Shown: one piece after another, positions 3,653 through 33,928 of the stretch
Position numbering within the stretch: the first letter of the stretch is position 1
Layout of the letters: every line of letters starts with the position of its first letter
Source of the DNA: a virus
Taxonomy: Duplodnaviria; Heunggongvirae; Uroviricota; Caudoviricetes
Length of the DNA stretch: 64,000 nucleotides
IMG/VR virus record: IMGVR_UViG_3300032334_002267
Coordinates: 9,310-73,309 of that record
Reading direction: 5' to 3' (one strand)
Notes under the pieces: model-generated
The model's input: only the letters and a program-made list of their open reading frames with translations
The model's database searches: none
Told to the model about the DNA's origin: nothing
Translations under genes and position numbers: made by a program

Positions 3653-3660
3653 GATATATA
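3653..3660 (+). promoter_or_regulatory. GATATATA box (putative late promoter)
   Basis: 17 nt upstream of the 3678 start; recurs at 7316, 12716, 17914, 23500, 26898, 36931, 52187 (+) and 56151, 59052, 61778 (-). Confidence 0.6.
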
Positions 3661-15507: not shown

Positions 15508-15544
15508 TTAGAAACAGTCATAAAACTATAAATACAATTAAAAG

Positions 15545-27953: not shown

Positions 27954-29510
27954 ATGAAACTAGAAGATTTAACACATGAACAAATTTCAGATCTCTCCGC
28001 GATTTACTGGAACAGAGATCTAAGCTGGGACGACAGAATGAAACAGCTAAGTCAATACCTAAACAAATCAGAAAGAACTGTACAGACCTGGATTTCCAAA
28101 CTCGGAATAACAGAAAAATCAATAACAGATTCACCTCAATATGCAGAGGCTAAGAAAAGAAAATTTGATAAGAAGAAGAAAAAATTTATTATAACTTGGG
28201 CTCAGAATGACACGCAAGTTCATGAAGACTTCGTTACCAACCTAGAAGCTTATGCTAAGCACATAGACGCATCTGTTCATGTCATAGCAGGAAGATATAA
28301 AAATCCCACATCAGTTTCAACTGACACCAGCTATGAGTCCTGGTCGGAAAGGATAGAACAGTATTTAGATGCTGGACGTCACGAAATACATAAGCACATG
28401 TGGATCATGTCAGATATTAAAATCCAACCTACTGCAGTGAATCCAATGACGGGTCTTGAAGGAATGAGTGGCGTTAATTCCTGTGTCTTCGGATCTCCTA
28501 AAGTTCAAATGGAAACAATCCCTGTTTTAGAAGGTAGTCTACCTAAGTTAATGCTAACAACAGGAGCTTGTACTCTTAGAAATTACACAGACTCTAAAGC
28601 GGGTAAGAAAGGGGAATTCCATCACGTTCTTGGTTTTGTGGTTGTCGAAATAAAAGATTCCTCTGTTTTCTTTGTTAGACAGGTAACTGCAACAGACGAT
28701 GGAAGTTTCACAGATCTTTACAACAAGGTTCAAAATGGAAAGGTTACTAAAGTTAAAAAGTTGGCTGCTGCCATTCTTGGAGACTTGCACTATGGACAGC
28801 ACGACGAAAGAATTATAGACAAGACCCTTGAGATGCTTAAGGATCTAAAACCAGATCATCTGGTTCTTCATGATGTTTTCGATGGTCTTTCTATAAATCA
28901 TCACGAATCAAACGATCCGTTTATTCAATACAAAAGAGAGATGGACGGAACCAACTCTTTAAGAAACGAGGTTGATCAGATGCTTAACGGTCTTAAAGAT
29001 TTTGAAAAATATAATGTGGTTGTGGTTAGAAGTAATCACGATGACTTCTTAGACAGATGGCTGAAATCTACAGATTGGAGAAAAGCCGGAACACTAAAGA
29101 ATTCTTTAGAGTATATGGAATACAGCTCTCTACTTCTTAAGGGCGAAGCACCAAACGGAGTTATTCCATATCTGATCAATAAGAGATATCCTAAATTCAA
29201 AACTTTAGGAAGAAGTGACAGCTACGTTGTTAATGGCTGGGAGCTAGGACAGCATGGCGATATTGGATCGAATGGAACTAGAGGATCTCTTTTGCAATTC
29301 AGAAAGCTGAACACCAAGATAGTTGTTGGCCACTATCACTCACCAGGAAGAAAGGATGGAGCTTTAGCGGTTGGAACATCAACTAAGCTAAGAGTAAATT
29401 ACAACCTAGGTCCAAGTGGATGGCTTCATTCGCATATTATCATCCATGAAGATGCTAAGGCTCAGCATATCAATTTTATTAAAGGCGAATTTACAACTCT
29501 TAAACCCTAA
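27954..29510 (+). CDS. N-terminal HTH-like domain plus calcineurin-like metallophosphoesterase/nuclease
   Basis: SERTVQTWISKLG (HTH-like); GDLHYG, HDVFDG, SNHDDF, QHGD, GHYHSP. Confidence 0.8.
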   Translation: MKLEDLTHEQISDLSAIYWNRDLSWDDRMKQLSQYLNKSERTVQTWISKLGITEKSITDSPQYAEAKKRKFDKKKKKFIITWAQNDTQVHEDFVTNLEAYAKHIDASVHVIAGRYKNPTSVSTDTSYESWSERIEQYLDAGRHEIHKHMWIMSDIKIQPTAVNPMTGLEGMSGVNSCVFGSPKVQMETIPVLEGSLPKLMLTTGACTLRNYTDSKAGKKGEFHHVLGFVVVEIKDSSVFFVRQVTATDDGSFTDLYNKVQNGKVTKVKKLAAAILGDLHYGQHDERIIDKTLEMLKDLKPDHLVLHDVFDGLSINHHESNDPFIQYKREMDGTNSLRNEVDQMLNGLKDFEKYNVVVVRSNHDDFLDRWLKSTDWRKAGTLKNSLEYMEYSSLLLKGEAPNGVIPYLINKRYPKFKTLGRSDSYVVNGWELGQHGDIGSNGTRGSLLQFRKLNTKIVVGHYHSPGRKDGALAVGTSTKLRVNYNLGPSGWLHSHIIIHEDAKAQHINFIKGEFTTLKP

Positions 29511-30088
29511 TGATAGATCTTAGTAAATATAAAGCAATAGCAGGGGTTGACGAAGTAGGCCGTGGGGGTCTCAGTGGCCCGGTAGTTTCTGCTTGTGTCA
29601 TTCTACCTGATGATTTTAGGGATTCTAGAATAAAGGATAGCAAGCTAATTAAAAGCATTAAGAAAAGAGAAGAGATAGAGAAGGTAATAAAAGAAAATGC
29701 TATCTCATGGGGCATAGGAGCAAGTTCTCCTCAGGAGATAGATCAATTTAATATTCTTCAGGCAACTTTTATCTCTATGAAAAGAGCCATAGACTCTTGC
29801 TCTACACAGCCTGATTTTCTCTATATCGACGGAGATAAATTTATAGGTCATAAGGAGATTCCTTACGAATGTGTAATCAAAGGGGATTCTAAAATCCTCT
29901 CAATTTCTGCGGCTTCCATACTGGCTAAAGTATATAGAGATAGACTTATGCAATCTATAGCAGCAGAATTTCCTCAATACCTTTGGGAGAAAAATATGGG
30001 TTATGGAACATCAGAACACATTAAATCAATAAGAGAAACAGGAATAACTAAACATCACAGAAAAAGCTTCTGTACAAATTTTATTTAA
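29510..30088 (+). CDS. rnhB: Ribonuclease HII
   Basis: GVDEVGRG, DSK, IDG, KGD..ILSISAASILAKVYRD, GYGT..H. Confidence 0.96.
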   Translation: MIDLSKYKAIAGVDEVGRGGLSGPVVSACVILPDDFRDSRIKDSKLIKSIKKREEIEKVIKENAISWGIGASSPQEIDQFNILQATFISMKRAIDSCSTQPDFLYIDGDKFIGHKEIPYECVIKGDSKILSISAASILAKVYRDRLMQSIAAEFPQYLWEKNMGYGTSEHIKSIRETGITKHHRKSFCTNFI

Positions 30089-30923: not shown

Positions 30924-30957
30924 TTTGGATCAGATAGATGATTAATCATATATAAAA

Positions 30958-31038
30958 TATTGTATTGAAAGGTGCCTTTCGTACTTAGTGTCCCAGGTCA
31001 AAATGGCCTTAGAGTTGTTTGAAAGAGCAGCAATGGGA
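30958..31038 (+). ncRNA. Structured 5' leader: long-range pairing arm (30958-30984) plus a three-way junction (30991-31038)
   Basis: TCCCA/TGGGA closing stem, GGTCA-AAA-TGGCC hairpin, GTTGTTT-GAAA-GAGCAGC hairpin with GNRA loop. Confidence 0.55.
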
Positions 31039-31063
31039 TTTTAAAAAAAAGAAAAGGTAAAAA

Positions 31064-31885
31064 ATGAAAAACAAAAACACAGGGGTAAACAGTACCCCAC
31101 AAGCTTGGATAGCCGTATCCAACAACAGACAAAAAATCTACGGCGCAAAGAATGATCTAGTTTATCTAGACGCAGGACAAGAGTTTCAAATTGAACTCTA
31201 CAACCCAACTTCCACGTCCTATCTTGCAAAAATCTATCTGAACGACAAGTTGATTAGCACATCAGGTTTGGTTATTAAACCAGGTCAGAGATACTTCTTG
31301 GATCGCCATATAGATGAGCAAAGAAAACTTCTTTTTTCCACATATTCAGTGGATGACAACGAAGAGGTTAAGGAAGTAATCAAAAACAACGGTAAGTTAA
31401 AGGTTGAATTCTACCAGGAAAATACTCCTAACTGGAATTCAATATCAACTGGCACTGTAACCTGGACAAACCCAAATTACGTAACTCCTCCAATAGTCTG
31501 GGCGACCCACAATTCCTACATCACCAACACCGGAGGATTATCGGGGAATCTAGCAAATCTCAGCGGAGGTGCAACATTGAATGGCATTAATGCAACGTAC
31601 ACAACAAACTCTTTCGTTAACCCGTCGTTTAACAATTCATCCATCTCTAGTAATACCTTAGAGACAGGAAGAATAGAAAGAGGCGGAAACTCCAATCAAG
31701 ATTTCGGTAAAGACTATGGCAATTATTCTTTCTATTGTGCTTATAAATCAGAGTACCAAATACTTCCGAGGTCAGTTAAGCCTGTGGAGGTTACAGAGCT
31801 CAGAGAATACTGCACTGAATGCGGATCTAGAATCAAAAAGAAAACCTGGAAATTTTGTCCATCATGTGGGGAATCTCTAGGATAA
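31064..31885 (+). CDS. Hypothetical protein with beta-rich N-terminal domain and C-terminal zinc ribbon
   Basis: GQEFQIELYNPT, KPGQRYFL.R; YCTECG...WKFCPSCG. Confidence 0.85.
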   Translation: MKNKNTGVNSTPQAWIAVSNNRQKIYGAKNDLVYLDAGQEFQIELYNPTSTSYLAKIYLNDKLISTSGLVIKPGQRYFLDRHIDEQRKLLFSTYSVDDNEEVKEVIKNNGKLKVEFYQENTPNWNSISTGTVTWTNPNYVTPPIVWATHNSYITNTGGLSGNLANLSGGATLNGINATYTTNSFVNPSFNNSSISSNTLETGRIERGGNSNQDFGKDYGNYSFYCAYKSEYQILPRSVKPVEVTELREYCTECGSRIKKKTWKFCPSCGESLG

Positions 31886-31893
31886 TTTAATTT

Positions 31894-31919
31894 GTACGGG
31901 AGGCACCTTAAATACAATA
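31894..31919 (+). repeat. 3' arm complementary to 30958-30984
   Basis: GTACGGGAGGCACCTT-A-AATACAATA pairs with TATTGTATT-GA-AAGGTGCCTTTCGTAC (two G-U pairs). Confidence 0.8.
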
Positions 31920-31972
31920 CACCCCGAAATTAAATTCCAGATAGCCCATACAATATTTAAAAGATAGAAGTT

Positions 31973-33928
31973 TTGAAAGTAGTTTATATTACTCCCCATC
32001 TCTCGACTGGGGGAATGCCAGAGTATCTAAAAAACAAAATAGAAAAGATAAAGGACGATGTGGAGATATGGGTTCTTGAAAAAAATCACGAGAAAACATA
32101 TAACACAATCCGCAAAAGGATCGAATCTTTAATAGGACAAGATAGAATAATAACTTGGGGAGAGATGCCTCAGAAACTTCTACTTGATAAGATTACAGAA
32201 ATAGATCCTGATGTGATCCATTTCGAGGAGCCTTCAGAGGAGTTTGTGCCAGACTATCATCTTGATAAAATATATTCTGATGAGAGAAGATATAGCATTT
32301 TTGAAACGCTCCATGATTCTTCATACAACGCTAAGGAAAAGATTTATCTTCCTGATAAATTTATTATGGTTAGTCCTTGGCAGGTGAATATTCTATCAGA
32401 TCTTAAAGTTCCTAATGAAGTTATTGAACACCAGTTACCCGAGGGAAGATCTAGAGACACAAATAAATCTAGAGAACTCCTAGGTTTAGACCCGAGTAAA
32501 AAACACGTGGTCCAGATAGGAATATTTACTCCCAGAAAAAATCAGAAAGAAACTGCAGATTTAGCTAAAAATTTTCCTGATGTTCAATTTCATTTTATCG
32601 GAACATTAGCAGATAATTACAGATGGTATTGGGAGCCTATAGTTAGGAAACTTCCGGAGAATTGCAAGATCTGGGGAGAAAGAGATGATGTGGATCTTTT
32701 TTATCAGGCTGCAGACCTTGTAATATTTCCATCAATAGCTTTATTCAATGACAAAGAGACAAGTCCTCTAGTTATAAAGGAGGCTATCTCATGGGGAAGC
32801 CCATTGTTATTAAGAAACCTTCCTGTTTACGTTGACATGTATCAGGAATCAAAAAATATAAAATTTATGTCAGATAAAAGAGAAGAAAACATAGAGATAT
32901 TAAAAGAGCTTCTAAGCACAAGGGTAGAGGTAGCACAGGAGGATTTATTCAGAGCCAGCTTTAATCCAGATGACAATAAGATAAGCATAGAATACTCAGG
33001 AACCACCCCGATAGGAAATGTTTTCGTTTCTGTGAAAGATCGGGACTCTAATGCCTGCATATACGGTTTTAATGTTGAAGCAAATTCACAAGGATCCGGT
33101 TGGTGGTGTATACCAATTCCTAAACAACATTTCGACTTTATGGGGAACCCTAATTTTACTGGATTCAAAATAGAGTTCTATAAGGATAGAGTGGATTCTT
33201 CACCTATCTATACTCATATAATAGATCTCAAAAAAAGCATTAATAAAAAGAAGATAATTTCAAACGGATACATCAACTTTGATCCAGTGTTTGTAAACTA
33301 TACCCAATTTTTCGTTGATGGAATTTATAATAATTTCTTTGCAGGTTATAGAATAAATTCTGCTATAGATGTTGGTGCAAATGTTGGACTTTTCACAGAG
33401 TGGGTTTTAGATAGATTTGGATCTGATACTTTTGTATTAGGAGTTGAACCAAACTCTGTGGCTGCTAAAGCCTTTGTTGCTATGCATGGAGAAAGGACAA
33501 ATGTTAAGTTTTCAGAGGTAGCACTTTCTGACACATCGGGAGATGAAATAGAAATGTTAATCAATCCCGAAAACACTCTAATCTCAAGTATAGAGGGAAC
33601 AGGAAGTCAGTACACGGAAAAGCAAATAGTTAAAACAAAAACTCTAGCTGATCTTATGACTGAATATGGACTTGATGAGGTTGACCTTTTAAAGGTTGAT
33701 GTAGAGGGAGCCGAGTATCAGATATTTAGTTGCTTGTCTCCTGAGGATATTAGAAAAAGATTCAAACACCTTTTAATAGAATTCCATAACAATCAGGGAA
33801 GAGCATCTGAGTTGATTAAGAAAATAAGAAGTGCAGGATATAGTGTTGATTTAAGAGACGATGACACTAGATACAGCACAGATGAAAATAATGATAGAGG
33901 TACAATCTTCGCAACAAGAATAGACTAA
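31973..33928 (+). CDS. GT4 glycosyltransferase fused to an FkbM-family methyltransferase
   Basis: HLSTGGMP, RKNQ, ETSPLVIKEA; IDVGANVG, LLKVDVEGAEY; TTG start. Confidence 0.9.
   Translation: MKVVYITPHLSTGGMPEYLKNKIEKIKDDVEIWVLEKNHEKTYNTIRKRIESLIGQDRIITWGEMPQKLLLDKITEIDPDVIHFEEPSEEFVPDYHLDKIYSDERRYSIFETLHDSSYNAKEKIYLPDKFIMVSPWQVNILSDLKVPNEVIEHQLPEGRSRDTNKSRELLGLDPSKKHVVQIGIFTPRKNQKETADLAKNFPDVQFHFIGTLADNYRWYWEPIVRKLPENCKIWGERDDVDLFYQAADLVIFPSIALFNDKETSPLVIKEAISWGSPLLLRNLPVYVDMYQESKNIKFMSDKREENIEILKELLSTRVEVAQEDLFRASFNPDDNKISIEYSGTTPIGNVFVSVKDRDSNACIYGFNVEANSQGSGWWCIPIPKQHFDFMGNPNFTGFKIEFYKDRVDSSPIYTHIIDLKKSINKKKIISNGYINFDPVFVNYTQFFVDGIYNNFFAGYRINSAIDVGANVGLFTEWVLDRFGSDTFVLGVEPNSVAAKAFVAMHGERTNVKFSEVALSDTSGDEIEMLINPENTLISSIEGTGSQYTEKQIVKTKTLADLMTEYGLDEVDLLKVDVEGAEYQIFSCLSPEDIRKRFKHLLIEFHNNQGRASELIKKIRSAGYSVDLRDDDTRYSTDENNDRGTIFATRID

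Follow-up and report, generated by a model that had tools for sequence, protein, structure and literature searches.

The window analysed here (64,000 nucleotides, nt) comprises bases 9310–73309 of the 154-kb virus record IMGVR_UViG_3300032334_002267 (IMG/VR; Caudoviricetes), which is approximately 55% complete. It contains an open reading frame (ORF) of 273 codons whose transcript is predicted to be closed by a long-range helix, P1, formed between an arm upstream of the coding region and a second arm just downstream of it, with a three-way RNA junction directly inside the 5′ arm. The parts of this element, in 5′ to 3′ order, are as follows.

30958–30984 (+): 5′ arm, the 5′ strand of P1, carrying a near-invariant CCUUU at 30975–30979
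30985–31044 (+): three-way junction leader, 60 nt, from an RNAalifold consensus of 30 sequences, with a k-junction-like layout
30985–30988/31041–31044 (+): P2a, a 4-base-pair (bp) extension
30990–30994/31035–31039 (+): P2
30995–30999/31005–31009 (+): P3
31010–31013 (+): J3/4 (U-A-G-A)
31014–31020/31025–31031 (+): P4, with a GAAA loop
31032–31034 (+): J4/2 (A-A-U)
31045–31063 (+): A-rich spacer with a Shine-Dalgarno-like AAAGGU at 31053–31058, 5 nt before the AUG
31064–31885 (+): ORF, 273 amino acids, with 587 homologues at E ≤ 0.001
31886–31893 (+): A/U spacer, 8 nt, from the stop codon to the 3′ arm
31894–31919 (+): 3′ arm, the 3′ strand of P1 and complement of the 5′ arm

The arms lie where an earlier interpretation of the bare sequence (the sequence-only reading) had placed them, and their coordinates and complementarity can be seen directly. 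Its description of the helix as 9 bp, a 2 × 1 internal loop and 16 bp with two G-U wobbles is also accurate: the outer part of P1 pairs 30958–30966 with 31911–31919 (9 bp), the internal loop sets 30967–30968 opposite 31910, and the inner part pairs 30969–30984 with 31894–31909 (16 bp). The two wobbles, U30978/G31900 and U30979/G31899 on the + strand, become C-A when read on the − strand. P1 in the window has an energy of about −32 kcal/mol and spans approximately 850 nt. A search of both strands of the 64-kb window with the 16-mer, allowing ≤3 mismatches, found these two places and no other, with 0.23 expected. When the upstream and downstream flanks of 224 crude gene calls in the 154-kb record were compared, the best stem was that of the gene studied here (score 38; next 28; median 16), and this genome-wide search for other panhandles yielded no comparable case. 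Matching of the P1 arms by chance is unlikely. Folding of the full 971-nt RNA returns the panhandle and the junction in both the minimum-free-energy and the centroid structures (z = −3.46).

Many of the 587 ORF homologues lie on contigs of 100–430 kb, and by tblastn the ORF is also present in Prevotella Lak megaphages and further published genomes of huge phages, 460–735 kb in size. The gene that carries the element is therefore one that huge phages have conserved. From viral and metagenome contigs we retrieved 178 homologous loci, of which 110 are unique in both flanks, and used a covariance model of the junction, R1, as the fixed anchor for each locus. Unanchored RNAduplex and Smith-Waterman searches of wide flanks raised 61/110 loci above shuffles. 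Because such searches are too noisy in A/T-rich DNA, we instead took the junction and the stop codon as anchors for the stem and compared the 45 nt before the junction with the 55 nt after the stop codon. An ungapped anchored stem above the 99th percentile of shuffles is present in 80/93 unique loci, and several of the loci that fail are just bulged. In all, about 100 homologous loci on huge-phage contigs preserve this layout. The inner end of P1 lies at −4 to +1 nt from the junction in nearly every locus, and the 3′ arm begins 3–13 nt past the stop codon in most; wherever P1 occurs, the partner of the 5′ end is always directly past the stop codon and never in the distal 3′ untranslated region (UTR). 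Helix length is 21–29 bp in the window's close clade and 11–14 bp in many other clades (11–29 bp across the family), with cores of 11–23 bp at −15 to −32 kcal/mol. A modest hairpin is possible within approximately half of the 5′ arms alone. One huge-phage locus, L183 (LR756500), has a 12-bp P1 that pairs TCTCACTTTGTT with AACAAAGTGAGA; 7 nt of its 3′ flank also complement the 5′ flank a second time (GTTAAGG with CCTTAAC), in an order incompatible with a simple stem; this match could be accidental or could represent a pseudoknot-like alternative.

Compensatory change between the arms, which the sequence-only reading had proposed to look for in homologues, is found throughout the family. The arms fall into 32 clusters with quite different cores, e.g. 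AAGGUGCCUUUCGUAC, ACGUUAACUC, GACCUUGUGGUU, GGAACCUCGU and AAGCCUUUCUCCGGCU, each with its own matching 3′ arm; the CCTTT of the 5′ arm, invariant or nearly so in alignment A2, is the best-conserved part. Pair counts for P1, whose arms lie 850 nt apart, were made in Python. Standard pairs fill 87% of cells over the 11 innermost positions, compared with 46 ± 2.6% (maximum 54%) when the 3′ arms are dealt among loci and 32–50% when they are slid by 1–3 nt, and each of the 11 positions displays 4–6 standard pair types. One pair can be followed in transit among three near-identical loci, as G-C (L107), A•C (L100) and A-U (L104). The earlier use of G-U pairs as a sign of selection on RNA is weak within the window, where there are two, but gains force across clades: with G-U and A-C penalised equally and one representative taken per cluster, the P1 cores contain 27 G-U and 9 A-C oppositions (p = 0.004), an excess that argues for selection on the + strand RNA and not on DNA.

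The three-way junction claimed directly inside the 5′ arm is likewise real. Among 80 distinct sequences, all 20 of its pairs have changed on both sides and 98% of cells are paired, with conserved G-U pairs among them; the controls reach 82% in shuffles and 32–51% when slid, the slid control being the fairer comparison because the alignment was fitted to the model. The unpaired bases are invariant, U-N-G-A before P4 (G in 79/80, A in 80/80) and R-A-W after it (R in 79/80, A in 80/80). A k-junction is a k-turn with a third helix inserted in the non-bulged strand (PMC4005666). At the level of sequence, the junction carries the k-junction signature, i.e. G•A and A•G/A•R pairs 3′ of the loop at the base of the non-canonical (NC) helix, and its helix order, P2-P3-loop-GA-P4-RA-P2, agrees with the published description (PMC4005666). 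As a lead, P3 would be the C helix, P4 with the G•A and A•R pairs the NC helix, and P2 the third helix.

R1 finds the leader once per locus in 97/100 sources, always just 5′ of the ORF, and once in the whole 154-kb record; it also detects it in Lak-A, Lak-B, Lak-C, LR756500, LR756504 and LR756508. A search of Rfam 15 with the window region and seven homologous loci returned nothing at the gathering score and chance-level matches at E ≤ 10, in keeping with the earlier statement that no named family was recognised, and a literature search for a described huge-phage RNA motif gave nothing pertinent. A hammerhead reading of the junction was discarded, the core CUGAUGA...GAAA being absent by inspection. 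An L7Ae-type k-turn binder (PF01248) was not found in the 55%-complete phage record. R1 describes a new RNA family, a marker for a single conserved gene in Lak-like and other huge phages. Covariation shows that selection acts on P1 and the junction as RNA structure of the + strand, and the distribution of the P1/junction module ties it to one gene family.

Not all lineages use the long-range helix. Significant P1 is absent from Lak-A, Lak-B, Lak-C, LR756504 and LR756508, all of which keep the junction; the Lak and LR756504 junctions have a visibly longer P2, and a longer P2 in place of P1 is likewise seen in loci L185 and L074. In one clade (L138, L042 and L043), close kin of P1-bearing loci, there is no 3′ arm and a local hairpin stands flush with the junction instead; local hairpins also occur in L062 and L073, and some of the hairpins that replace P1 have 8 bp. 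That P1 can be swapped for a local hairpin or a long P2 argues that a flush helix at the 5′ end is the family-wide requirement. The conserved need would then be for a helix that stands directly against the junction at the extreme 5′ end, most commonly in the form of long-range P1. In the Lak phages a small local hairpin (ATAAGT...ACTTAT) is also possible after the junction, in the start-codon region.

The surroundings of the element, including the neighbouring genes, contain the following features.

27954–30088 (+): A1-like DNA transfer/metallophosphoesterase protein (T5 A1-like; phrog_1745, E = 4.6e-151), followed by an RNase HII gene
30938–30949 (+): perfect 12-nt palindrome ATGATTAATCAT (ATGATT/AATCAT), with a 2-nt overlap with the start of the promoter box
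30948–30955 (+): promoter-like box ATATATAA, 2 nt before the 5′ arm
31925–31954 (+): conserved region ahead of the next gene, with a CGAAAUU(A/U) box at 31925–31935 and TACAAT at 31949–31954
31973–33928 (+): fused group-1 glycosyltransferase and FkbM-type methyltransferase, with a TTG start and no obvious Shine-Dalgarno sequence

The promoter-like box noted before the 5′ arm is supported by word counts: among 7-mers found ahead of genes in this genome, its ATATATA has the highest enrichment (43/60 copies lie ≤100 nt from a start codon, 10.5-fold). The word usually lies 11–60 nt before the start codon; for the studied gene the distance is 116 nt, because the arm and junction add the extra length. 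A TATA-like box is present ≤30 nt upstream of the arm in 62/84 unique homologous loci, and distant clades have TTGACA or TTTACA separated by 17 nt from a TATATT that immediately precedes the arm. We take the box at 30948 as the unit's probable phage promoter and infer the transcription start from it. Further (G)ATATATAA boxes on the + strand, at 3654, 23501, 36932, 37435, 48615, 52188 and other positions, lie 11–82 nt before start codons and probably form a class of promoters specific to the phage; T4-late-like TATAAATA boxes are seen at 15527 and 48618. Relatives have other short palindromes or hairpins at the site of the 30938–30949 palindrome, some overlapping the upstream stop codon, and the palindrome is a possible operator or small hairpin. 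In one clade (L153, 1306–1392; L162, L167 and L170) a tRNA gene with its terminator, and not a protein gene, lies directly upstream of the 5′ arm.

At the other end, a terminator (hairpin and T-run) follows the 3′ arm in 31/84 unique loci, starting 0–9 nt past the arm in nearly all of them. A consensus scan around the unit in the window gave neither a sigma-70 promoter nor a + strand terminator. With a promoter before the arm and a terminator after it, the unit can therefore be read as promoter, 5′ arm, junction, ribosome-binding site, ORF, spacer, 3′ arm and terminator, and the comparison of loci places P1 around a predicted transcription unit. The earlier suggestion that the arms bracket the transcript is borne out by this comparison; the window's own clade has no terminator there, so that read-through is possible in it. 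Beyond the 3′ arm, CGAAATTTTAT and TATAAATA recur in the close clade in the region ahead of the next gene, and 31925–31954 is the probable promoter region of the glycosyltransferase/methyltransferase gene.

The databases searched offer no informative family or structural match for the ORF product. Its AlphaFold2 model (mean predicted local distance difference test score 61) comprises a β-sandwich (residues 12–120), a disordered N/S/T-rich linker, further strands and a C-terminal CxxC...CxxC zinc ribbon. The 273-residue protein has no match in PHROGs and none in the PDB by Foldseek at E ≤ 0.001; weak β-sandwich hints point to TssJ and Pam3 gp18 (E of 0.006–0.03). BFVD returns uncharacterised viral proteins only and the ESM Atlas virus-only hypothetical clusters, and in these searches the family is confined to viruses. 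The enclosed ORF proposed by the sequence-only reading is thus real, and its zinc ribbon appears in the model, although the Pfam matches to zinc ribbons (residues 249–271) are all sub-threshold. The start codon lies 13–30 nt from P2a, and AAGG(U) 4–8 nt before the AUG is conserved in most clades. The Lak homologues (L180–L182, from Lak-C1, Lak-A1 and Lak-B1) contain in-frame TAG codons, which agrees with stop-codon recoding in Lak phages.

Upstream of the studied gene are two acidic ORFs and, before them, the A1-like gene, followed by the RNase HII gene with overlapping stop and start codons. Elsewhere in the window, 22921–23394 (+) matches the Rfam transfer-messenger RNA (tmRNA) model RF00023 (70.9 bits, E = 1.3e-25) over its full length, 474 nt corresponding to 374 model positions; ARAGORN detects no tmRNA or tRNA anywhere in the window, and the region may be a phage tmRNA of unusual length or with insertions.

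On balance, we consider it somewhat probable that the transcript is a cis-acting structured mRNA in which P1 and the junction would control stability and translation. Transcription would probably begin a few bases past ATATATAA, and the first ~25 nt of the RNA would pair with the 3′ UTR as P1. The inner end of P1 would run without a gap into P2a/P2 of the 60-nt junction, leaving the ribosome-binding site and the 273-codon ORF as one large loop out of the P1/P2a seam. The flush 5′ helix could seal the 5′ terminus against end-dependent decay, its long-range form could also tie down the 3′ UTR, and the helix may hold the leader in the fold that determines how ribosomes gain access. The junction would probably serve as a protein-binding site, possibly for the gene's own zinc-ribbon product; exclusivity to one gene family makes a protein a likelier ligand than a metabolite. 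The hbs mRNA of B. subtilis provides a precedent for a 5′/3′-UTR helix that affects decay (PMC5737220), and stabilisation or "circularisation" by base pairing is plausible here. A more speculative reading, possible but doubtful, is that the mRNA is functionally circular: by joining the base past the stop codon to the one ahead of the leader junction, P1 would either license translation only when an intact 3′ end is present or return terminating ribosomes to the start codon. If so, base pairing would here do what the closed loop does in eukaryotes, on the basis of a new k-junction motif that may be bound by the gene's own zinc-ribbon protein.

Several observations tell against this account of a structured mRNA governed by P1 and the junction. 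Every functional step in it is one that we infer, and the k-junction assignment is a lead taken from sequence and topology alone, in a loop that has two clearly unpaired bases and not three. The window's clade has no terminator after the 3′ arm, so that the RNA may read through and P1 may be internal and not terminal, and the promoter box is so near the arm that the outermost P1 pairs may precede the transcription start. A local hairpin would suffice for 5′ protection, and stability alone does not account for the choice of the distant 3′ UTR as the partner in most lineages.

The alternative that survives best, which we regard as possible but doubtful as a full explanation, is a translation switch that senses the 3′ end. 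In the nascent RNA the 5′-arm CCUUU would mask AAAGG(U) until the longer pairing with the 3′ arm displaces the ribosome-binding site, so that only complete transcripts with intact 3′ ends would be translated, the mirror image of the tac/fbi logic of hok; such a switch is compatible with the structured-mRNA account favoured above. When the 5′ part of the window transcript is folded alone, the arm is predicted to pair with AAAGGUA and the ribosome-binding site is 0.55 unpaired, rising to 0.95 with the 3′ arm; averaged over representatives, however, its openness rises merely from 0.62 to 0.72. The arm pairs with the ribosome-binding site in 14/27 representatives. Cognate arm-to-site duplexes are stronger than non-cognate ones (mean −7.1 vs −5.1 kcal/mol; 0/20000 permutations as low) and their longest complementary words are longer (mean 5.0 vs 4.4 nt; 6/20000 permutations), although these permutation tests ignore kinship between loci and A/U-rich leaders readily pair with U-rich arms. 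Arm and site also change together between clades (CCUUU/AAAGG, CCUC/GAGG and UUAACU/AGUUAA), and CCUUU is the best-conserved part of the arm, but the complementarity is just 4–7 nt and is weak or absent in approximately one third of clusters. Refolding by 5′/3′ pairing has a precedent in hok (PMC9841398); against a general role, the lineages with a local hairpin or long P2 function without a 3′ arm.

We consider it unlikely that P1 is an RNase III processing stalk, cut to release or mature a monocistronic mRNA from a longer transcript. This idea, raised by the sequence-only reading, suits the window's clade, in which P1 is long (25 bp with a 2 × 1 internal loop in the window, 21–29 bp in close relatives) and would stack on P2a/P2 to give a longer quasi-continuous helix, and in which the missing terminator past the 3′ arm makes read-through plausible; the icaR 5′/3′-UTR duplex can likewise be an RNase III substrate (PMC3868564). 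It does not extend to the family, because many clades hold just 11–14 bp and some have an 8-bp local hairpin in place of P1; the roughly two helical turns (≥20 bp) of double-stranded RNA that mark such a stalk are thus reached in the window and its clade but not in many others. A search of the 55%-complete phage record for an RNase III gene (PF14622) found none; the host's own enzyme was not examined.

Closed-loop translation, in which P1/P2a would set the stop and start codons side by side so that terminating ribosomes re-initiate on the same mRNA, seems to us decidedly improbable as the principal role. The distances that it would exploit are short and conserved in nearly all loci (stop codon 3–13 nt from P1, start codon 13–30 nt from P2a), and the 5′ end, where paired at long range, always finds its partner right past the stop codon and never in the distal 3′ UTR. 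Short spacers may, however, just reflect a compact genome, and there are lineages without a 3′ arm.

A DNA-level inverted repeat (mobile cassette ends, an invertible gene switch or paired operator sites) is very improbable and we reject it: gene-flanking repeats would co-vary too if one protein recognised both copies, and the gene does occur as an independent unit in different contexts, with a tRNA upstream in some loci, but G-U exceeds A-C (27 vs 9), the 32 arm clusters would mean that the specificity of the recognising protein had changed again and again, the arms in every case abut a one-sided RNA junction inside a promoter-terminator unit, the ORF, promoter box and junction share one strand in all listed loci (together with both neighbours in the close clade), the long-range repeat is swapped for a local hairpin in three loci, and no transposase or recombinase lies next to the gene. 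The excisable ORF-in-a-loop element that had also been suggested gains no support, no ribozyme, intron, recombinase or orientation polymorphism having been found.

Of known systems, the hok mRNA is the closest in layout. In its tac/fbi pairing, as in P1, the extreme 5′ end pairs with the 3′ end across the whole coding region (PMC9841398), and alternative partners for the 5′ element are plausible here as well, where local hairpins of the 5′ arm could be metastable intermediates. The hok pairing, in contrast, keeps its mRNA from being translated until the 3′ end has been trimmed, whereas here the ribosome-binding site is predicted to open with P1 (0.95 vs 0.55). The phage ORF has 273 codons and encodes a soluble-looking β-sandwich and zinc ribbon, unlike the small membrane toxin of hok, and a three-way junction adjoins the helix. 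We saw no hok-type antisense RNA, although the minus-strand sites of the region were not examined as an antisense unit.

The hbs mRNA of B. subtilis shares with the phage unit a long-range UTR-UTR helix of similar length (14 bp in hbs) in a monocistronic mRNA, and its helix has been proposed to shield the leader from ribonucleases (PMC5737220). In contrast to the phage unit, hbs is a host gene without a junction motif whose pairing overlaps an RNase Y site (PMC5737220), and the phage helix begins at or near the first predicted transcribed base. In S. aureus icaR, the 5′ and 3′ UTRs also pair within one bacterial mRNA to give a possible RNase III substrate, but the icaR 3′ UTR pairs with the Shine-Dalgarno region and represses translation (PMC3868564). 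The phage 3′ arm instead pairs with 30958–30984, approximately 70–95 nt upstream of the Shine-Dalgarno-like sequence at 31053–31058.

The RNase III stalks of 16S and 23S rRNA and the T7 R sites are long-range helices that flank a long functional RNA, and the window helix, 25 bp with an internal loop, resembles them; the phage helix differs in that its length varies across the family from 11 to 29 bp. The junction itself is most like the k-junction of the thiamine pyrophosphate (TPP) riboswitch. In both, the base of one helix has G-A on one strand, following a short loop, and R-A on the opposite strand, and a third helix is inserted in the non-bulged strand (PMC4005666). The phage junction differs from the riboswitch in having no sequence or Rfam similarity to it, a shorter loop and a tie to a single gene family. 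This restriction to one gene family suggests a protein-binding or architectural role, and not that of a metabolite sensor.

Long-range 5′/3′-UTR pairing is thus already known from hok, icaR and hbs; what is new is that it is phage-borne, shows deep covariation and is joined to a new junction motif. To our knowledge, end-to-end pairing of bacterial-type mRNAs is otherwise represented by this handful of singly studied cases. Here, in comparison, a helix over ~850 nt has been kept by compensatory change in dozens of divergent huge-phage lineages, and the family constitutes a natural variant series (long-range helix, local hairpin and extended P2) in which one can ask what end-to-end pairing adds, be it stability, completeness checking or ribosome recycling.

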